Shown in pieces: positions 1 to 52,362 of a DNA stretch of 64,000 bases. Numbering within the stretch: position 1 is the first letter of the stretch; each line of letters opens with the position of its first letter. The notes under the pieces are model-generated. The model did no database searches, had not been told where the DNA came from, and worked only from the letters and a program-made list of their open reading frames with translations. This DNA is from Bacilli bacterium (GTDB lineage Bacteria > Bacillota_I > Bacilli_A > RFN20 > CAG-826): NCBI GenBank assembly GCA_045226015.1, contig JBGVBY010000004.1, positions 20,329 through 84,328 on the forward strand. Reading direction: 5' to 3'. The translations under genes and the position numbers were made by a program.

Positions 1-71
1 AAAGAAAGATTGATGTTTTTAAGCACAAAGCGGTTGTTATATTTTTTAGATACATTTTTAAGGTCAATCAT
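1..71 (-). CDS. ABC transporter ATP-binding protein, N-terminal fragment (runs off window edge)
   Basis: Not in the ORF track. ATG at 71 overlaps the upstream stop (ATGA) and reads MIDLKNVSKKYNNRFVLKNINLS, a typical ABC ATPase N-terminus. Confidence 0.75.
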   Translation of the reverse strand, partial: MIDLKNVSKKYNNRFVLKNINLS

Positions 72-2167
72 ATAGTTTTCAGTTCTCCTTTTATCGAATG
101 TTTTTTTGACAAGAAAATTGGAAGAAGTGTAGCGATAAACGAAACTAAGAAAACACCTAACAGAATCAAAATAGGGAATAAAAAACGAATTCCTAAGTAC
201 TGTGAGTAAGGAATAAGAATCAAATCTTTTACATCCAAGTTATTATAGATAAGAGAATTAATGATTTTAGAAAACAAGAGCGAGGTAAGAGAAGAAATGG
301 CAATCGCAAAAACACCATTAATGATGGATTCTCCTAAATATATTGAAGAGATGTCTTCATTTGACGCTCCTAAAGAGGAAAGAATCGCGCTGTTTTTTCT
401 ATCTTCAGAATAACTAGTAAAAGAGATGATGCTTAAGATAAGAATAGAACCGATAAAGCAGATTATTAAAAAGAGAATGACCCCATATTCAGCAACTTCT
501 AAAAAAATAAATAACGAATTAGCAACTAATAAGGATTGATTAGAGTAAACGAGGTTACCACCAACATTAATCCCATTAAACAATAGGTCCTTTTTGCTTA
601 TATCCTTCAAAAACAATGAATAAGAATAGGAAGATAAAATGGAATGATCATCTGAAGTAAGCACTCTATCATACCATGATATATCTATGCCTTTGTAGGT
701 TGATAGATTTAGTAAAAGTAGCTCTTTTAAATATTCGCTTAATTTACTATAACTATAATAAATTTTAGGAGTTGATAAATACCTTAAATCTTTTACTACT
801 CCCGATATTTTTAAAGTTCTACTTATTCTAAACACATCAATGACTTCTAACTGTAATTCATCCATGTAAGATGTGATTAGTTCGTTCTTTATGGTTATAG
901 TCTCTCCAATTGGATTTCTATTTAAATCAGTAAGAAGATGGCTATATGCTTCTTCATTAATAAAAACCTCATCGAAATTATCTATTTCTGGCAATGAAGC
1001 ATATACTATTTGAGAGGCATCTACGTATCTAGCATTTAGAGAATATACAGGCGTGAAATTATAGTTATACAAAGATGTGTCTTTATATGAAATTTGAATA
1101 TTTGAAGGGATAATTGCCGAAAAATTAGGACAAATATGGAAATTTTCAGTCAAAAAGCTAATATCTTCAAGCTTGCTCAATTTAGGTCTACTACTCTTAG
1201 ATAAAGATAACAAACCGCTGCCAGATGTTTTCACTTCTTCTGATATTGTTCCAGAGCCAAATGCAAATTGCTTAGATGTTGCATCTTTAAGCGCTTTTGT
1301 CTTGTTATCACTAAACCCTAAAACCAGATATAGCAATGTTAAACTAATACTAAAAGCAAGCACACAAAAAATATTTCTTTTTATATGCTTTCGATAATTC
1401 GATAGAAGAAAAATATTGGTCCAAATAGATGATCTTTTTGTCTTTATTTCCTCAACTACTTTATTATTGCTTTCTTTGTTTTTAATGTAAGAGTCGCTTA
1501 CAACCTTACCGTCAGATAATTCAATAATTCTGTCCGAGTATGGTTTTGTTAGTTGTAGGTTGTGAGAAACTAGTATCACTAATCTACTTTTACTTATTTC
1601 TTTTAAGTATTCAATTACTGTTTTGGAATTAGAAGAATCTAAAGCACCAGTTGGCTCATCACAAAAAATTATTTTTGGATTATTTATTAACGCTCTAGCA
1701 ATACATACCCTCTGAGTTTCTCCTCCAGACAGATATTTAGCCTTCACGTTCCATAATTCTTCACTTATGTTGAATCTTTTTAATAACTCTTTAGCGGCTT
1801 TTACCGCCTTTTTTCTTTTTACTCCACTTATTAAAGCAGGGACTATAACATTTTGAATAACGTTAAGATTTGAAAACAAATGATATTCCTGATAAATGAT
1901 ACCTATACTTTTATTTCTGAATTTATTCTCTTTGTTTCCTCTAATTGAACTATAGCTCTTGTTGTTATAATACAAATCACCACTACTAGGCTTATCTAGT
2001 TTTGATAGAAGATTGATCAATGTCGACTTTCCACTTCCAGAATGGCCAGAGATAAGCACTAAACCTCTGTCATCAAAGGATAGATTTGTGGACTTCAAAG
2101 CGTAAAACTCTTGAGTTTTGTTGATCTGATATTTTTTAGAAATGTCTTTGGCAATTAATAGTTTCAT
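68..2167 (-). CDS. MacB/FtsX-like fused ABC ATPase-permease
   Basis: Walker A GHSGSGKS, signature LSGGETQR, Walker B IFCDEPTG, H-loop VSH; one TM helix, a large extracellular loop, then an FtsX-type C-terminal TM bundle. Confidence 0.9.
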   Translation of the reverse strand: MKLLIAKDISKKYQINKTQEFYALKSTNLSFDDRGLVLISGHSGSGKSTLINLLSKLDKPSSGDLYYNNKSYSSIRGNKENKFRNKSIGIIYQEYHLFSNLNVIQNVIVPALISGVKRKKAVKAAKELLKRFNISEELWNVKAKYLSGGETQRVCIARALINNPKIIFCDEPTGALDSSNSKTVIEYLKEISKSRLVILVSHNLQLTKPYSDRIIELSDGKVVSDSYIKNKESNNKVVEEIKTKRSSIWTNIFLLSNYRKHIKRNIFCVLAFSISLTLLYLVLGFSDNKTKALKDATSKQFAFGSGTISEEVKTSGSGLLSLSKSSRPKLSKLEDISFLTENFHICPNFSAIIPSNIQISYKDTSLYNYNFTPVYSLNARYVDASQIVYASLPEIDNFDEVFINEEAYSHLLTDLNRNPIGETITIKNELITSYMDELQLEVIDVFRISRTLKISGVVKDLRYLSTPKIYYSYSKLSEYLKELLLLNLSTYKGIDISWYDRVLTSDDHSILSSYSYSLFLKDISKKDLLFNGINVGGNLVYSNQSLLVANSLFIFLEVAEYGVILFLIICFIGSILILSIISFTSYSEDRKNSAILSSLGASNEDISSIYLGESIINGVFAIAISSLTSLLFSKIINSLIYNNLDVKDLILIPYSQYLGIRFLFPILILLGVFLVSFIATLLPIFLSKKHSIKGELKTI

Positions 2168-2175
2168 AGAAAAAC

Positions 2176-2214
2176 CCCCTCATTATTTAAATAGGGGGAT
2201 TTTTCAATTTTTTT
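2176..2214 (-). promoter_or_regulatory. Shared 39-bp motif, copy 1 (candidate alternative-sigma promoter or operator); also folds as a CCCCCT/AGGGGG hairpin plus T-run that could terminate fhs
   Basis: AAAAAAATTGAAAAATCCCCCTATTTAAATAATGAGGGG aligns without gaps to the copies at 10068-10106 and 12026-12064. Confidence 0.65.
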
Positions 2215-2225
2215 AAAAATTTTCT

Positions 2226-3830
2226 TTAATTATTTTCCATTTTGACTGCGGCAGGTACTTTTGGAAGGCCTGGCATAGTCATAATTGAACCAGTAAGAGG
2301 AACAATGAATCCCGCTCCACTAGATAGTCTAACTTCTCTAATTGTGATGTCAAAATCATCAGGTGCGCCTTGAATCTTTGCGTTATCTGTAAATGATAAT
2401 GGAGTCTTAGCAATACAAATAGGAGTCTTGTCGTACCCAATCTTTGTAAATGCTTCAATTTGTTCTAAAGCTTTATCGGTGTAAACAACATTTTTCGCTC
2501 TATAGATTTCTTTACAAATCTTTTCAATTTTAGCTTTGATTGGTTCATTAACATCATATAAAGGATGGTATTTACTTTCCTCTTTATCTAATGTTTCAAG
2601 CACTAAGTTTGCTAAAGCAACACCACCTTCTGCGCCTTTAGAGAAGGAATCGCAGAAAGCATATTTGTAATTTTGTTTTTTGCATAGCTCTTTAAGAGTT
2701 TCGGTTTCTTTTTCTGTATCGCTTTCAAAGTGATTGATACATACAACAGCAGGAACTCCATATTTAGCAATATTTTCCATATGTCTTTGAAGATTCTTAA
2801 AGCCAATAGTTAAAGCTTCAATATTTTCTTTTTCTAAATCATCATAAGATGACCCACCGTGGAGTTTGAGTGCTCTAATAGTAGCAACCATAACAACAGC
2901 GTTAGGAGTTAATCCTCCAACACGACATTTTATATCTAAGAACTTTTCTGCGCCTAAATCAGCACCAAAACCTGCCTCTGTAACAACAATTGGGGCAAGT
3001 TTAAGTGCCATCTTTGTGGCCATAATGGAATTACATCCATGAGCGATATTAGCAAATGGTCCTCCATGAATTAAGCATGGATTATCTTCTAGTGTTTGTA
3101 CAAGATTAGGATTAAACGCGTTTTTCATCAATTTATAAATAGCGTTATTGATATGTAACGAATCTAAATAAACAGGGTTACCATCTAAATCATAGGCCAC
3201 CATGATGTTTTTAATACGTTTAATAAAATCATCAGGATCTTTGGCTAAGCACAAGATCGCCATAAGTTCACTGGCAACCGTAATCACAAATTCATCATGA
3301 CGTGGTTCACTTTTCTTTTCATCTTGATTAACAGTGACAGATCTTAACGCTCTATCATTCATATCAAGAGCGCGTTTCCATAAGATTCTACTTGGGTCAA
3401 TTCTTAATTCGTTGCCTTGGAAGATATGGTTATCAATAATTGCGGAGATTAAGTTAATTGAACTAGTCAAAGCATGCATATCACCAGTAAAGTGAAGATT
3501 TATATCTTCAGATGGGATAACACTAGCCTTTCCTCCGCCTGTTGCCCCACCTTTTAGTCCAAAGACAGGACCTAAAGAAGGTTCTCTAAGACAGAGCAAG
3601 GAATTAACACCAACTTTTCTTAATCCGTCTTGAAGAGCAATAGATGTTGTTGTCTTTCCTTCTCCAGCTTTTGTAGGAGTAATAGCGGTAACTAAAACGA
3701 GTTTACCGTCTTTGTTATCTTTCAACTTTTCGTTAATCTTTAAATCAATTTTCGCTTTGTCATTACCATAAGGAATAACAAACTCCTTATCAATGTTTGC
3801 TTTTTTGGCAATTTCGAATATATCTAGCAT
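2226..3830 (-). CDS. fhs: Formate--tetrahydrofolate ligase
   Basis: TPTKAGEGKTT, GLKGGATGGG, HGGPFANIAHG and MTMPGLP motifs. Confidence 0.97.
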   Translation of the reverse strand: MLDIFEIAKKANIDKEFVIPYGNDKAKIDLKINEKLKDNKDGKLVLVTAITPTKAGEGKTTTSIALQDGLRKVGVNSLLCLREPSLGPVFGLKGGATGGGKASVIPSEDINLHFTGDMHALTSSINLISAIIDNHIFQGNELRIDPSRILWKRALDMNDRALRSVTVNQDEKKSEPRHDEFVITVASELMAILCLAKDPDDFIKRIKNIMVAYDLDGNPVYLDSLHINNAIYKLMKNAFNPNLVQTLEDNPCLIHGGPFANIAHGCNSIMATKMALKLAPIVVTEAGFGADLGAEKFLDIKCRVGGLTPNAVVMVATIRALKLHGGSSYDDLEKENIEALTIGFKNLQRHMENIAKYGVPAVVCINHFESDTEKETETLKELCKKQNYKYAFCDSFSKGAEGGVALANLVLETLDKEESKYHPLYDVNEPIKAKIEKICKEIYRAKNVVYTDKALEQIEAFTKIGYDKTPICIAKTPLSFTDNAKIQGAPDDFDITIREVRLSSGAGFIVPLTGSIMTMPGLPKVPAAVKMENN

Positions 3831-9059: not shown

Positions 9060-10061
9060 TTATAACTTTTGATCTTTAATTTCCTTGATCTTCTTAAGGA
9101 GTTCTTCCTTAACATCTTCATTAGCTTTAATGTATTCTTTAGCGCTATCGCGGCCTTGAGCAATCTTGCTTCCGTTATATTCGAACCAAGCGCCACTCTT
9201 TTTGATGATACCAAGTTCAACAGCACGATCAAGAATCTCGGCTTCCTTAGAAATACCTTGGCCATAAATAATATCAATCTCGCATTGTTTAAATGGTGGG
9301 CTAACTTTGTTTTTAACAACCTTAATTCTACAAGTGTTACCAGTAACATCGCTTCCTGATTTAATGGCTTCGGTTCTACGAATATCAAGTCTAATAGAAG
9401 CATAGAATTTAAGCGCTCTACCACCACTTGTGGTTTCTGGATTACCGTACATAACACCAACCTTTTCTCTTAATTGGTTAATGAAGATAATCGCACATTC
9501 TTTTTTGTTAAGAATACCAGCAAGTTTTCTCATTGCTTTACTCATTAAGCGCGCTTGCATGCCAACAGAGTTATCGCCCATTTCACCATCAAGTTCAGCT
9601 TGAGGTACTAAAGCAGCGACGCTATCAACAATAAGAAGATCAATCGCGCCACTACTAACAAGCATCTCTGAAATCTCTAAAGCTTGTTCGCCGCTATCAG
9701 GTTGCGAAAGAATGAGTTCATCAATGTTAACTCCTAAATTCTTTGCGTAGATAGGATCAATCGCGTGCTCAGCGTCAATAAAAGCTGCACGTCCACCTTG
9801 TTTTTGACATTCTGCTATCGCGTGTAACGCAAGCGTAGTTTTACCACTACTCTCAGGGCCAAAAATTTCAATAATTCTTCCTCTAGGATATCCACCCACT
9901 CCAAGAGCTTCGTCTAAGAGAAGGGAACCGGAAGGAATTACAGAAACGTCTACAGCAGGTCTATCTCCTAAGACCATAACTGCACCTTTACCAAATGTTT
10001 TTTGGATTTCGTTTAGAACTGCGTCGAGTTCTTTTGAGTCAATTTGTTTTTTCTTTTCCAT
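9060..10061 (-). CDS. recA: Recombinase A
   Basis: [34 protein letters not shown]. Confidence 0.99.
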
Positions 10062-10067
10062 AAAAGT

Positions 10068-10106
10068 CTCCTCACTATTTAAATAGGAAGAAAATGCGAT
10101 TTTTTT
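10068..10106 (-). promoter_or_regulatory. Shared 39-bp motif, copy 2, fused to the recA ribosome-binding site
   Basis: AAAAAAATCGCATTTTCTTCCTATTTAAATAGTGAGGAG, 36/39 identical to 12026-12064. Confidence 0.7.
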
Positions 10107-10575
10107 AATTATTTTCTTGTAATTTTTTTTCTAAAATTTCACAAGCAATATTAATTGCTTGATTTTGTATACTTTTTCTATCCCCTTCAAGAAGATATGA
10201 AAATACTTGGCATTTATCATAGAAAGCAACGCCTATATAAACTTCTCCAACTTTCTTGTCTTCCATTGCAGTTGGACCAGCGTTTCCAGTAAAAGAAACA
10301 CAATAATCTACATTAAGAAGAACTTTAGCACGGCTCGCCATTTCTCCTGCAACTTCTTGAGATACAACTCCATATCTATCAATGATTGAATAAGGAATTC
10401 CTAATATGCGTGCCTTTTCTTCAGTCGCGTATGTAACTAATGAACCTTTAAAAAAATGAGAAGCACCGCTTATAGAAGTAATGGCGCTAGCAAAACTACC
10501 ACCAGTAAAAGATTCTACTGAACCAAGTGTTCTGCCTTTTTCTCTAAATAATCTATTAAGTTCTTCAACGGTCAT
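10105..10575 (-). CDS. cinA: CinA C-terminal domain protein (NMN deamidase, PncC-like)
   Basis: [37 protein letters not shown]; upstream of recA. Confidence 0.9.
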
Positions 10576-10576
10576 A

Positions 10577-11215
10577 TTATTTACTTTCTAAAAATGCTTT
10601 TCTATTTTGATAGACATAAATAACACCACTAATAAATGAAACTAATGTAGCGGCGTACACCAAGAATGATGTCACAGTTAAATATGGATATGGGTTATTT
10701 GGATACATATAGTGGAATGGGAAATCGTTAAGCAAAACACAAGCGATAGCAACCATTTGTAGGACAGTTTTTAACTTACCAAATATATTAGCGGCAATAA
10801 CCACTCCCTTTTGAGCAGCAATAAATCTTAAAGCGTCAACAACTGTATCTCTAGCAACCATAATAATGACGCACCAAATAGAAATATAGATAGTTTGTTC
10901 ATGAGCGTATAAAGAGGCTTCTCTACATGCTAAGAAGATAAGCATTGTGCTCACCAAAAGTTTATCTGCAACAGGATCTAAAAATTTCCCTAAATCAGTA
11001 ACTTGATTGTTTTTTCTAGCAAGCTTTCCATCTAAATGATCGGTGTAGCTAGCAATCACGAAAAACACGAAAATTACTAAAAATATCAAGTTTATGCGTG
11101 TATTTCCGAGAAGAGGAGTATTAAGTTCTGGATAAAACGAAAGAACAAATAGTGTGATAATCAACATCACAGTAGCAATGATTCTAGCGAATGTAATTTT
11201 TGTTGGAAGATTCAT
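10577..11215 (-). CDS. pgsA: CDP-diacylglycerol--glycerol-3-phosphate 3-phosphatidyltransferase
   Basis: DHLDGKLARKNNQVTDLGKFLDPVADK CDP-alcohol phosphotransferase motif. Confidence 0.95.
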   Translation of the reverse strand: MNLPTKITFARIIATVMLIITLFVLSFYPELNTPLLGNTRINLIFLVIFVFFVIASYTDHLDGKLARKNNQVTDLGKFLDPVADKLLVSTMLIFLACREASLYAHEQTIYISIWCVIIMVARDTVVDALRFIAAQKGVVIAANIFGKLKTVLQMVAIACVLLNDFPFHYMYPNNPYPYLTVTSFLVYAATLVSFISGVIYVYQNRKAFLESK

Positions 11216-11240
11216 AATTTCCTCTTTTCTTTTAGTGAGT

Positions 11241-11581
11241 CCTCGATCCTATAAGCCATGTTTTGTCTAGGATGATAATTTATCTAAGATTGCTCTTACT
11301 TGAATCGATTCAATTCTCTATCAAGTCTCCCCTACCAAATTTGGGTTTCTCACTTACGGGGTTTACCGCGTTCCACCTTATTCTTTCAAATAAGCTACGT
11401 CACTGTGGCACTTTCAGGAATTCTACCATGGATTGCTCTTTAGGTTAAATTCCGCCGTCACGTACTCCTACGTGCCTAGTGTTATTTTTTTCACTAGCGT
11501 AATCACTACAACCATCGCAGGCTGTATGAGCATGGACTTTCCTCTAACTAACTAGTAGTCAGCAATCATCCAGATCGAAGG
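11241..11581 (-). ncRNA. rnpB: RNase P RNA, bacterial type B
   Basis: Minus strand carries GAGGAAAGTCCATGC, AAAGTGCCACAG, GGTAAACCCC and ACAAAACATGGCTTAT; termini pair (P1); downstream of gpsB as in Bacilli. Confidence 0.95.
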
Positions 11582-11582
11582 T

Positions 11583-11939
11583 TTATTTAATTTCATCGGG
11601 ATTCATATTTAATTTTTCATAAATTATCTTCTCCAACTTCCCGATGCGTAGAAGAAGTTCGTAGTTATCAATATGGATGTTTTTATGGTCTTTGGAAATA
11701 TATTTCCATTTGTCCTTTTCGTTTTCTAATTCTGACCTAAGTTTAGCGTTCTCTTCTTTCAATGTTTTAACTTGTTCTAGTAAAGAGTTGTCAGAAATAG
11801 ACAAACTTTTTTCAAACGCTTCATAGTCACGAATAATCTTATCTAAATATTCATCAACCTCTAATGGGTTATATCCATTTACAGAAGTTGAGAACTTTTT
11901 ATTAAGTAATTCATCACTAGAGCAATTCAATTTATCCAT
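11583..11939 (-). CDS. gpsB: GpsB/DivIVA-domain protein
   Basis: KKFSTSVNGYNPLEVDEYLDKII N-terminal domain and NYELLLRIGKLEK C-terminal motif. Confidence 0.88.
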   Translation of the reverse strand: MDKLNCSSDELLNKKFSTSVNGYNPLEVDEYLDKIIRDYEAFEKSLSISDNSLLEQVKTLKEENAKLRSELENEKDKWKYISKDHKNIHIDNYELLLRIGKLEKIIYEKLNMNPDEIK

Positions 11940-12025
11940 ATCATTAATATTATGAATGAAAAAAGTTTATTTTTCATTAAAAAAATAAAAAAGTTTATAG
12001 ATATAAAAAAGTAAAATTTCTAACC

Positions 12026-12064
12026 AAAAAAATCGCGTTTTCTTCCTATTTAAATAATGAGGGG
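12026..12064 (+). promoter_or_regulatory. Shared 39-bp motif, copy 3
   Basis: AAAAAAATCGCGTTTTCTTCCTATTTAAATAATGAGGGG. Confidence 0.7.
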
Positions 12065-12195
12065 GCAAATATTGTTCCTTCTTCCAAAGGTCATGACTAG
12101 CAATCATGATTTGAGGAGTTTTCTTTGATAATTTCTTTTGTACTCAAGGCATGAATGCTAAGTCGTGTCTTTTGGAAAGTAGAGAGGAGGTGATG
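12059..12195 (+). ncRNA. Structured 5' leader of the small-peptide mRNA (two hairpins, then SD)
   Basis: 10-bp hairpin at 12059-12081. Long hairpin 12082-12115/12143-12177 with 31 pairs, three of them G-U that work only on the + strand. SD GAGGAGGTGA follows. Confidence 0.6.
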
Positions 12196-12201
12196 TAGAC
12201 A

Positions 12202-12273
12202 ATGGATTATCTAAGTCTAGTCTTAATCCTATTATGTATTTTCTTCTACATAATAAAAGATCACCGTAGATAG
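12202..12273 (+). CDS. 23-aa hydrophobic peptide MDYLSLVLILLCIFFYIIKDHRR, candidate type I toxin
   Basis: Near-perfect SD (GGAGGTGA at 12186-12193) 8 nt before the ATG; single hydrophobic helix with a charged C-terminus; too short for the ORF track. Confidence 0.65.
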   Translation: MDYLSLVLILLCIFFYIIKDHRR

Positions 12274-12280
12274 GTGACCT
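12252..12280 (-). terminator. Minus-strand intrinsic terminator overlapping the 3' end of the peptide ORF (candidate antitoxin 3' end)
   Basis: AGGTCACC-TATCTAC-GGTGATCT-TTTATT. The stem has a G-U pair on the minus strand but an A-C mismatch on the plus strand. Confidence 0.5.
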
Positions 12281-12408
12281 TACCTACTAATAAAGTAAAT
12301 TATCTGAGGATAGATTTCAATAGAAAGTTATTTTGACAATCAAAATTAAGTTAATACATATTATATATTCTTGAAAAGAAATACCTATGACTATAAACTA
12401 GTCATGAT

Positions 12409-13134
12409 ATGAAAAAAGTATTAAAAGCGTTTAAGGGTCATAAATATCTATGCTTCATGGATTTTGAAGGAACTCAATATTCTCATGAAATGATCGCCTA
12501 TGGAGCTGTGCTTGTAACCATTGATAAAAACGGCCACATTGTTAAAAGAAAACATCCTATAAAAAGATATGTTCGCGCTAAAAACGCAATTGGTAAATTT
12601 GTTGAAGGATTAACCGGCATTACTCAAACAGACTTAAATAAGTTTGGCATTACTTTTAGTGAAGGGATGAAAGAACTTAAGAAATATTGTGGATTAACAT
12701 TTAAAAAATGTTCATTCATCACTTTTGGAAATCATGACATGAGAATCTTGTCTCAATCAATGTCATATAACTTAGATAGCCCAAAAGAGTTGTGTGGAAT
12801 TATTAAAAGCAACTTTGTTGATTTCCAGGCCATTATCTCAGAATTCATAAAAGATGATAAAGGAAATGTCATGTCATTAGCGCACTACCTACAAACATTT
12901 GGAATCGAGTTTGATGGAGAGGCGCACGATCCAGAATATGACGCTATTAATCTAGCGAATTTATATGACGCTTTTATCACAAATAAAGAAGTTGTGCTAA
13001 ATGAATATCTTAAAAACCTTAAGAAATCTTCATTCCATCCAACTCCAATCGATAAAGTTGTTAAAAAATTACTTAATAACGAACCTATTACTCCTGAAGA
13101 ATTTATCACATATTTAAAAGACTATATTGCCTAA
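12409..13134 (+). CDS. DEDDh 3'-5' exonuclease (KapD/ERI-1-like)
   Basis: ExoI DFEGT, LTGITQ, ExoII FGNHD, ExoIII HDPEYDA. Confidence 0.8.
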   Translation: MKKVLKAFKGHKYLCFMDFEGTQYSHEMIAYGAVLVTIDKNGHIVKRKHPIKRYVRAKNAIGKFVEGLTGITQTDLNKFGITFSEGMKELKKYCGLTFKKCSFITFGNHDMRILSQSMSYNLDSPKELCGIIKSNFVDFQAIISEFIKDDKGNVMSLAHYLQTFGIEFDGEAHDPEYDAINLANLYDAFITNKEVVLNEYLKNLKKSSFHPTPIDKVVKKLLNNEPITPEEFITYLKDYIA

Positions 13135-13135
13135 G

Positions 13136-13723
13136 ATGAAATATCCAAACGGACAAGAATATAAACCAAATACATGTAGGAAGTCTCATAAAAGCAAAGC
13201 TGAGATATCTTTAAGTTCCGCTAATAGAGGGATGAATCTTGAAAGCGAAATTAACCTTTCAAACGCATATTACAAAGATAAAGATATTTGTCTAATTACC
13301 AAGAGACCAACTCCTATCAATATTGTTAAAGTTGATTATTCAAAAGGTGCTAAAATCACTCATGCATACTTCGAAGAACAATCCACTACCGACTATAACG
13401 GAGTGTACCGTTCTCGTTATATCGATTTTGAAGCAAAAAACACAAAGAACAAAACTTCCTTCCCATTAAGTAATATCACTCCAAATCAAATTGATCACTT
13501 AAAGAGAGTTATAGCGCACGGAGGAATCGCCTTTTTCATCGTAAGTTTTGAAAGTTTGAATAAGGTTTATTTGTTAGACGCTCAATATGTTATCGATTTT
13601 TATGAAAATGGGGAAAGAAAATCCATTCCAGTAGATTGCTTTAATGAAAATGGAATAGAAATAAAACAAGGGTTCAATCCTCGTTTAGATTATATAGACG
13701 CTGTTAATAAGAAATATTTCTAA
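13136..13723 (+). CDS. recU: Holliday junction resolvase RecU
   Basis: NRGMNLE, KRPTP, STTDYNGVY, DFEAKNT. Confidence 0.95.
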   Translation: MKYPNGQEYKPNTCRKSHKSKAEISLSSANRGMNLESEINLSNAYYKDKDICLITKRPTPINIVKVDYSKGAKITHAYFEEQSTTDYNGVYRSRYIDFEAKNTKNKTSFPLSNITPNQIDHLKRVIAHGGIAFFIVSFESLNKVYLLDAQYVIDFYENGERKSIPVDCFNENGIEIKQGFNPRLDYIDAVNKKYF

Positions 13724-52189: not shown

Positions 52190-52239
52190 AAAATAAAAAT
52201 CCTTAGAATAACTCCAAGGAAAACGAAATAGTATTACAT

Positions 52240-52343
52240 ACTTCTTTCATCCAGACTTTACTGTCGCCACTTGAATTACACAAGTTCCTGCATTTCTGCT
52301 CGCGGGGTATACCGCCGGTCGCGTTAATTCGCTGCCCTGAAGT
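52240..52343 (-). ncRNA. FMN riboswitch (variant aptamer)
   Basis: CTTCAGGGCAG..GACCGGCGGTATA..CCGCGAG..GTGTAATTC..CGACAGTAAAGTCTGGATGAAAGAAG; a downstream hairpin TCCTTGGA/TCTAAGGA plus T-run covers the ribU SD. Confidence 0.9.
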
Positions 52344-52362
52344 TAGTTTAATAATAAAACAA

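Follow-up and report, generated by a model that had tools for sequence, protein, structure and literature searches.

Introduction

Competence regulons driven by sigma-H/ComX-type factors are already known. Sigma-H-like factors drive the late com genes of Staphylococcus aureus, Lactobacillus sakei and Listeria (PMC3486894, PMC3364868, PMC4754846; these and the papers below are cited from excerpts), and in those excerpts the sigH-like genes of Firmicutes are placed at a cysS-nusG locus and described as diverging fast in lactobacilli and staphylococci (PMC3364868), production of S. aureus SigH is limited post-transcriptionally by an inverted repeat in the 5' untranslated region (UTR) of its gene (PMC3486894), and the Listeria comG and comE promoters lie 19 and 22 nucleotides (nt) from the gene (PMC4754846). 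In Mycoplasma genitalium, one alternative sigma factor, sigma-20 (MG428), drives recA and a C39-peptidase ATP-binding cassette (ABC) gene (PMC4446450); its promoters are found 15-17 nt before the ATG and its activation is rare (PMC4446450, PMC6105099), and the excerpts place ComEC (MG_316) among the candidate sigma-20 promoters only (PMC4446450). Here we analyse a regulatory motif found in a 64,000-nt stretch of DNA (contig JBGVBY010000004.1, positions 20,329 to 84,328; hereafter the window) from an uncultured member of the Bacilli, in which a first-pass annotation had noticed three copies of a 39-bp element, before recA, before an operon of MacB-like ABC genes and before a hidden small-peptide locus, and had proposed that they mark an undescribed regulon.

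We extended the search to the whole genome (G000; 1.17 Mb in 22 contigs, about 35% G+C, rated 95% complete) and to its relatives. On balance, we favour the reading that the motif is a promoter, or a shared cis-regulatory element, of a natural-competence regulon, most likely read by the only alternative sigma factor of this genome. The assignment to competence is held with high confidence at the level of regulon content and conservation; the assignment to a sigma-H-like factor, with a transcription start at RTGAGG, appears probable and is held with clearly more reserve.

Results

The motif forms a discrete family of 18 co-oriented copies

On reading the window, the three copies were found with the coordinates, strands and letters claimed, each facing what follows it. 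The copy before recA (core 10068-10106, minus strand; 62-nt matrix window 10063..10124, 60.6 bits, and 29.6 bits with the core matrix) has the stop codon of cinA as its 5' edge, and the recA ATG (10061, minus) lies 7 nt past its GAGGAG. The gene that follows encodes a RecA of 333 amino acids (aa) (9060..10061, minus; PF00154, 1e-136), and the co-oriented gene upstream is of the cinA type, with the CinA/PncC domain only according to the domain search (156 aa; 10105..10575, minus); no terminator was seen between the two, and neither this gap, as had been stated, nor the rest of the window holds a Cheo box (GAAC-N4-GTTC). The copy before the small-peptide locus (core 12026-12064, plus strand; 12008..12069, 73.0 bits) differs from the recA copy at three positions only, the 36/39 identity originally reported. 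The third copy (core 2176-2214, minus strand; 2171..2232, 65.9 bits) begins immediately past the formate-tetrahydrofolate ligase gene, and 9 nt after its GAGGGGG stands the ATG (2167, minus) of a fused ABC ATPase-FtsX permease of 699 aa (68..2167, minus), whose ABC_tran and FtsX domains agree with its earlier description as MacB-like; a second fused ABC-FtsX gene (930 aa) starts downstream of it, at window position 71, and extends off the window. A degenerate pattern with up to 3 mismatches identified exactly these 3 places in the window, and gave no match in 100 dinucleotide-preserving shuffles of it.

Across the genome, a loose regular expression retrieved 18 copies, all of them intergenic and co-oriented with the next gene or small open reading frame (ORF), so that the further gene-proximal copies expected of a regulon do exist. 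With a 62-nt weight matrix, all 18 scored 50-77 bits, nothing in the rest of the genome exceeded 10 bits, and the maximum in five order-2 Markov genomes was 3.3 bits; a 20-nt core matrix recovered the same 18 at 19.6 bits or more, with the next background at or below 14.8 bits and null maxima of 15.9-17.1 bits, plus one extra match (19.5 bits) that is the reverse-strand overlap of one palindromic site. Both matrices are circular, having been built from the 18 sites first picked by the regular expression; it is therefore the empty gap between the scores of sites and background, and not the scores themselves, that identifies a discrete motif family.

The consensus consists, in order, of an optional AT-rich block (TTAAAATTTTTAGAC-like), A6-7-TCG, a 9-nt pyrimidine-rich spacer, CCTATTtAAATA and RTGAGGgG, and sequence similarity among the copies stops beyond the motif borders. 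The 39 bp first described thus needed extension in about 11 of the 18 copies, where conservation continues for some 20 nt further upstream through the AT-rich block; at recA, the ABC gene and dprA, the position of this block falls within the preceding gene and is not conserved, and the 39 bp can therefore be regarded as the essential part.

The motif precedes genes for DNA uptake and single-strand processing

Ten copies stand before protein genes, named here by Pfam and NCBIfam, and eight before small-peptide loci. Besides recA (PF00154) and the two fused ABC-FtsX (MacB-like) genes of 699 and 930 aa, the protein targets are comEA (HHH_3) with comEC (TIGR00361, 193.6 bits, over the cut-off); dprA with topA; radC, after a 280-nt leader; rpsF-ssb (S6 and SSB); a six-gene operon encoding a 106-aa protein of the MG284/MPN403 family, two unknown proteins, a T2SSE ATPase and two membrane proteins; a group of small basic ORFs, with a comFA-like helicase gene and comFC lying 1.9 kb downstream of the motif site; a C39-peptidase gene followed by ybeY, cdd and era; and a thioredoxin-like gene with UvrD/PcrA. 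The T2SSE ATPase (VirB11/TadA/ComGA-like) is the only one in the genome. Enrichment before competence genes, which had been suggested as the mark of a competence sigma regulon, is thus what the scan revealed, with comEA/comEC, dprA, ssb and radC all directly behind copies.

Two side observations concern these loci. The 106-aa protein (L005:3615-3935, minus strand; contig C6) matches the MG284/MPN403 family at 50 bits in NCBIfam, over the cut-off, and a cow-rumen-1 RNA (RF02946, 56.3 bits; L012:2879-2941, minus strand) lies antisense between the small basic ORFs and the comFA-like gene.

The same list of targets bears on a LexA-independent DNA-damage (SOS-like) regulon as the alternative to competence. 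The typical SOS-type cargo of E. coli includes recA, ssb, UvrD, radC and small toxin-like peptides, all of these find counterparts among the present targets (recA, ssb, the UvrD/PcrA helicase, radC and the toxin-like peptides), and no LexA was found. Against this, comEA-comEC, dprA and the T2SSE ATPase operon serve DNA uptake and not repair, and none of the uvrABC, ruv or dinB genes is among the 18 targets. The palindromic core TATTTAAATA, which the first-pass annotation had left open as an operator for a non-LexA DNA-damage repressor, found no support either: the cores are asymmetric in relatives, which argues against a symmetric operator. We regard a purely SOS-like regulon as very improbable, with the qualification that the two readings can overlap, as competence is thought to stand in for SOS in streptococci.

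The regulon is conserved while its letters drift between species

The strict pattern of this genome matched at 12 places in G000 and nowhere in 40 relatives. The non-conservation that this seemed to indicate was rejected once orthologous upstream regions were read, which revealed the same architecture with letters that drift between species. By eye, diverged versions were recognised before dprA in 19 of 20, before comEA in 18 of 19 and before recA in 17 of 19 same-genus genomes, a typical variant ending in ...GCAAAAAAATCGAAAAAATCCACTCTATATATAATGAGGAGG; the conservation upstream of recA orthologues on which the first proposal depended is therefore present in diverged form. In other families of the order, only a CC-C-TAT...RTG-AAGGAGG core is kept before comEA. 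Furthermore, a looser pattern run against public genomes identified 5 stretches in 3 metagenome bins (uncultured Bacillales or Erysipelotrichaceae), own genome not counted.

A scan of one of the closest relatives (G006) with its own core gave 11 sites, and none with the reversed pattern as control. These sites lie before dprA, comEA-comEC, an ABC gene, the operon of the 106-aa protein, rpsF-ssb, radC and five small loci. At four of the small loci, an ORF for a hydrophobic peptide of 18-25 aa follows some 150 nt further on, and the fifth yielded none. Since the sites precede largely the same genes, the regulon is conserved and not just the letters. Further, the core letters vary between species but not within a genome, which is what sites following a rapidly evolving reader would show.

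These comparisons also address a duplicated or mobile promoter cassette spread without any shared regulator. Eight of the 18 copies do lie in paralogous small-peptide loci that are clearly duplicated; however, the genes behind the other ten are single-copy and unrelated to one another, and these copies keep orthologous positions throughout a genus in which DprA identity is only 44-68%; furthermore, similarity does not extend past the motif borders, the targets form a functionally coherent set, and the absence from orthologous sites in relatives that a cassette predicts was not found. Of all explanations considered, we find this one the hardest to credit.

A single sigma-H-like factor is the candidate reader

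Only two sigma-70-family genes were found in the genome, rpoD and one small sigma-H-like gene. ComK (PF06338) had no match at E<=1 in this 95%-complete genome, and no LexA was found over the cut-off, the best match to PF01726 (LexA_DNA_bind), in a frame of 349 aa that lies upstream of the dnaJ region, reaching 14.4 bits against a cut-off of 23.7. Intact homologues of the small sigma factor have 191-206 aa, in agreement with the two-domain (regions 2 and 4) sigma-70 family of about 190-220 aa, and its C-terminal part in G000 matches Sigma70_r2 at 24.9 bits (cut-off 24). A profile of 14 homologues found the PDB sigma-H structure 3mzy_A first, at 1.8e-12, followed by sigma-E and SigW. All 14 homologues match TIGR02937, and 13 of the 14 match spore_sigH (TIGR02859) weakly (best E = 8.9e-6), below equivalog level, the one member shown having 22 bits against a cut-off of 294.8 bits; no ComX-named family was returned by the NCBIfam search.

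The gene has cysS and an rRNA methylase gene directly upstream, recalling the cysS side of the cysS-nusG locus on which sigH-like genes are placed (PMC3364868), and, downstream, an ECF-type ABC ATPase gene, not nusG. Within the genus, identity of the small sigma factor is 25-49% (21 of 22 genomes), to be compared with 79-92% for RecA, 58-72% for ComEA and 44-68% for DprA. Of 41 relatives searched with the sigma profile, 37 have a homologue, and the other families of the order are represented among them.

The sigma gene has a ribosome-binding site predicted to lie in a hairpin and, in three species, a conserved frameshift

In three species (G000, G014 and G006), a run of eight adenines (A8) splits the sigma gene, which lies on the minus strand (contig C1:6993-7000 of G000, equivalent to L126:1999-2006; also L127 for G014 and L128 for G006). 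The N-terminal part, of about 36 codons, is conserved among the three, aligns with intact homologues and ends in ...RYRKK, and its frame meets a stop 5-10 codons later; the C-terminal part, of about 170 codons, is conserved in the +1 frame and has no conserved start codon of its own. The match to the sigma profile begins at position 24-32 in these three genomes only. The three species share the same 17 nt around the run, although their sigma proteins are only 45-49% identical. A second, independent assembly is identical over the region, and a relative from another study, about 94% identical, shows 37 substitutions and no gap across the run; contigs hide minor variants at such a run. The one run labelled metatranscriptomic gave no match at the sigma locus.

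A homopolymer at the frame junction, an out-of-frame state conserved across species and conservation of both parts are the features by which slippage genes are recognised, and all were found here. The locus resembles poly(A)-slippage genes (programmed transcriptional realignment, phase variation) in having its A8 run within the coding sequence and everything after the run shifted to the +1 frame, and in an out-of-frame state conserved in three species plus a fourth, the relative of about 94% identity. We know of no A8 frameshift in a competence sigma factor, nor of a counterpart to it in the SigH systems.

Upstream of the coding region, the Shine-Dalgarno sequence of the sigma gene forms the 3' arm of a predicted hairpin in 21 of 22 species (predicted fold at L126:2110-2136, minus strand, with the matching 5' UTRs in L127-L147). 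The mean z of these hairpins is -3.16, and each species has its own arm letters; in a control set of 250 G000 genes, the Shine-Dalgarno sequence fell within a hairpin in 31%, with a mean z of -0.34. The folds were made per species with this control set, replacing an alignment-based fold, as RNAalifold on a MAFFT alignment of the 5' UTRs gave 0 pairs, the arms being out of register. Judged by reading frames, the start codon of the gene is seemingly ATT or ATA in at least two species (G020 and G011), and may be ATC in G017. Taken together, these features suggest a master regulator that would deliberately be made rarely.

The proposed promoter resembles sigma-H-type com promoters in geometry, with other letters

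The boxes of known regulators were essentially absent from the 18 sites. The streptococcal cin-box TACGAATA had no exact match and one with a single mismatch; the sigma-H promoter (RNAGGAWWW-N11/12-RNNGAAT) was found in 0/18, also in the loose form AGGA-N14-18-GAAT; the sigma-20 promoter (TTGTCA-N18/19-ATTWAT) in 0/18, also with 1 mismatch in the -35; the Cheo box (GAAC-N4-GTTC) in 0/18; and the ComK K-box (two AAAA-N5-TTTT boxes 8, 18 or 31 bp apart) in 0/18, with a single AT-box in 6/18. By eye, some copies hold TTGACA/TTGTCA-like hexamers, but these lie 21 nt before ATTTAA.

At six ORF-proximal sites, CCTATT ends 20-23 nt before the start codon by our own count. This geometry does resemble that of sigma-H-type com promoters, for which the Listeria distances serve as comparison, counted by a convention that may differ from ours. 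In our proposed register, A6-7-TYG (A7TCG) would serve as a -35-like element, followed by the 9-nt pyrimidine-rich spacer; CCTATT(N)AAATA (CCTATT) would be the -10-like element; and transcription would start at or just before RTGAGG, leaving the GAGG Shine-Dalgarno at the 5' end of a leader of about 15 nt. We favour this register because an RNA starting near RTGAGG would retain GAGG as its ribosome-binding site; in alternative registers, e.g., with the -10 placed on WATAAT (positions 28-33), the RNA would begin only past GAGG. The ATG or GTG within RTGAGG was also considered as a leaderless start codon, and was rejected as out of frame with recA and comEA (own count).

Those same WATAAT letters speak for another explanation, in which sigma-A promoters are controlled by a transcription factor of their own, either activating from the A-tract/TCG box or repressing by covering the core, and the small sigma factor has another role or is decaying. 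The core holds sigma-A-like -10 letters (WATAAT/WATAGT at positions 28-33, TATAAT in several relatives), the element is long, about 11 of 18 copies having the extra upstream AT-rich block, G000 has a frameshifted sigma gene, and the motif-driven 106-aa MG284/MPN403-family protein (also motif-driven in G006), the C-end of which resembles by eye a sigma region-4 helix-turn-helix, may be a co-regulator. However, 0/18 sites fit the sigma-A consensus at <=1 mismatch per hexamer, a -10 at WATAAT would forfeit the Shine-Dalgarno sequence found 7-10 nt before six start codons, ComK was not found and no LexA passed its cut-off, the core is not palindromic in relatives, and both halves of the sigma gene are open and conserved in three species. 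A dedicated factor of this kind is therefore unlikely in our view, and the strongest of the competing explanations.

The motif could also act in RNA, with the pyrimidine arm and the GAGG arm forming a hairpin that hides the ribosome-binding site, mainly as a translational device on read-through transcripts. The arms are complementary in most copies, at a mean duplex energy of -7.2 kcal/mol (e.g., CCCCCT/AGGGGG at the ABC gene, CTCC/GGAG at dprA), and at five sites or more the motif comes immediately after a gene of the same orientation. Nevertheless, own arms pair no better than swapped ones (-7.20 vs -6.89 kcal/mol; permutation p ~0.22), so that there is no site-specific covariation in this genome, and the A7TCG box lies outside any such hairpin. 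As the sole function of the motif we consider this improbable; such a hairpin may be a layer added to a promoter, and not its replacement.

Eight sites precede small hydrophobic peptide genes

The hidden peptide locus proposed in the window does contain an ORF, a 23-aa hydrophobic peptide gene (MDYLSLVLILLCIFFYIIKDHRR; 12202..12273, plus strand) of type-I-toxin-like appearance, with its own AGGAGG, paralogues in the genome and counterparts in G006. The locus is one of five paralogues; two further loci have the same architecture, and one more has a tandem second peptide gene, which brings the eight motif sites to nine ORFs for peptides of 19-24 aa. At each, the motif is followed by a conserved leader of about 140-150 nt, an own AGGAGG and an ORF of 19-24 codons, and each peptide consists of a single hydrophobic helix with a basic tail at its end. 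In the window, the leader (12065..12201, plus strand) shows 70% mean column identity in an alignment of the 5 paralogous copies, and the fold of the RNA at 12057-12330 has a z of -5.57, none of 200 shuffles being as stable. A hairpin at the 3' end of the ORF (12257..12281) has a terminator-like score on the minus strand, and could mark the end of a convergent antisense RNA.

This is the architecture of type I toxin genes, and a toxin role is predicted on that ground. The likeness to type I toxin-antitoxin systems of the Fst/Ldr, TisB and Ibs types lies in the 19-24-aa peptides with one hydrophobic helix and a charged tail, in the long, highly structured 5' leader and in the several copies per genome; unlike those systems, the only sign of an antisense RNA here is the terminator-like hairpin on the opposite strand, and no named Rfam family matches the small loci at gathering scores. 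TisB and DinQ are SOS-induced, and the co-regulation of peptides with recA in this genome recalls them. A literature search turned up, among the papers listed, none on a type I toxin under competence (ComX) control.

Three observations on these loci stand apart. At L009:1500-2000 (the C21:8432 site), two small-peptide genes of 20 and 19 aa lie in tandem, with a full motif only before the first, the second having a degenerate core without A-tract/TCG box. Just 3' of each peptide ORF stands a conserved CCTAYTAATAAAGTAAA-like block that resembles the motif core (12290-12320 in the window; same place in L001, L004, L006, L008, L011 and L013), which could be a second site or an antisense-RNA target. 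Lastly, the motif-internal ATG opens a 23-aa frame through the conserved leader (12057-12128, plus strand), the start and part of which are kept in 4 of 5 paralogues; since a stop interrupts it in one, its coding status is doubtful.

Other features of the window

Co-oriented 3' of the peptide locus lie an exonuclease-like gene (241 aa; KapD-like at 3.4e-9, below the cut-off) and recU (198 aa; RecU, 5e-59), together at 12409..13723 on the plus strand, which might be reached by read-through from the motif. Two structured RNAs were also identified on the minus strand, a class B RNase P RNA (271 bits; 11247-11577) between pgsA and a DivIVA-like gene, directly 3' of the latter, and an FMN riboswitch (82.7 bits; 52235-52348).

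Discussion

The first-pass annotation had favoured a ComX/SigH-like competence sigma factor as reader of the motif, and our results lend it support on four sides: the enrichment of competence targets, the presence of one sigma-H-like gene, the lack of ComK or LexA matches over the cut-off and the diverged conservation of the sites. Among described systems, the SigH of S. aureus, L. sakei and Listeria, as portrayed in the excerpts, is one of the closest, with a small two-domain sigma factor encoded beside cysS, very fast divergence between species, late com targets (comEA/EC etc.) and promoters about 20 nt before the start codon; the predicted hairpin upstream of our sigma gene is likewise comparable to the 5'-UTR structure holding S. 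aureus SigH back. The differences are that the Listeria boxes described there, AAAGGAWTT and GNNGAAT, have other letters, that the regulon here is wider (recA, ssb, radC, ABC exporters and eight toxin-like peptides), that no ComG-type pilus genes were recognised, and that the sigma gene here has the A8 frameshift. Streptococcal ComX/SigX is also a single alternative sigma factor with comEA/EC, dprA, ssb, recA (behind cinA), radC and comF as targets, and shares with our window the same cinA-recA arrangement, but it uses a cin-box that is not found here. The sigma-20 regulon of M. genitalium, another genome-reduced relative within the Bacilli, is similar in its single alternative sigma factor, in promoters close to the ATG and in targets (recA and a C39-peptidase ABC gene), as far as the excerpts go; here, in contrast, the promoter letters are different, ruvAB are not targets and the uptake set comEA, comEC and dprA is included. 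Several proteins of our genome match mycoplasma-named NCBIfam models, two over the cut-off and two below.

Several observations weigh against a competence promoter read by this sigma factor. The sigma gene is out of frame as assembled in this genome, and if the frameshift is simple decay, another protein must read the motif; furthermore, no motif copy of its own was found at the sigma gene in the genome scans with either matrix. The motif bears no likeness to known sigma-H, ComX or sigma-20 promoters (0/18 each), its conservation over 40-62 nt exceeds the usual length of a promoter, and the A-tract/TCG box could be an activator site instead. The uptake machine would be atypical or incomplete, since no match to T2SSF (ComGB), Peptidase_A24 (prepilin peptidase) or CoiA was obtained at E<=1. 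In the two closest relatives, G014 (L062) and G006 (L064), no motif stands upstream of recA, which appears to move in and out of the regulon. Lastly, no RNA runs were found for this organism, and we thus infer start sites and induction from DNA.

With a sigma-H-like competence factor still as the favoured reader, the following sequence of events may be envisaged. Once the sigma factor is made, in response to some putative inducer, the 18 units would be turned on together: the DNA receptor and channel (comEA-comEC); the handling of single-stranded DNA (dprA, ssb, recA, radC and the UvrD/PcrA helicase); the T2SSE ATPase operon, two MacB-like exporters and the C39 peptidase; and eight small hydrophobic toxin-like peptides. 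Production of the sigma factor would be gated after transcription by the predicted hairpin over its ribosome-binding site. Here and in the two closest relatives, the A8 run would in addition leave the sigma factor out of frame unless corrected, and the frame might be restored by the loss of one A or the gain of two, in DNA or RNA, or by a +1 shift of the ribosome.

A wider reading, which we put forward as tentative and rather doubtful, is that across the genus, and perhaps the order, one sigma-H-like factor runs a combined competence/stress programme through an undescribed type of promoter, as a stochastic switch that includes toxin-like peptides. The hosts would be uncultured, genome-reduced gut Bacilli with no recognisable LexA; the switch would be set by the hairpin hiding the ribosome-binding site and, in one subclade, by an A8 slippage or phase-variation frameshift; and DNA uptake and recombination would be coupled to type-I-toxin-like membrane peptides arresting or killing cells during competence.

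What falls outside known models is the set of promoter letters, the inclusion of eight toxin-like peptides and two exporters, and a master regulator kept out of frame by a conserved A8 run. Taken together, our results provide a testable regulatory map of natural transformation, with one motif, 18 targets and one candidate sigma factor, for an uncultured gut and rumen lineage known only from metagenome bins. If confirmed, species-specific motifs would allow the prediction of competence regulons in hundreds of related bins, and in-frame expression of the sigma factor would suggest itself as a route to transformable organisms of this lineage.

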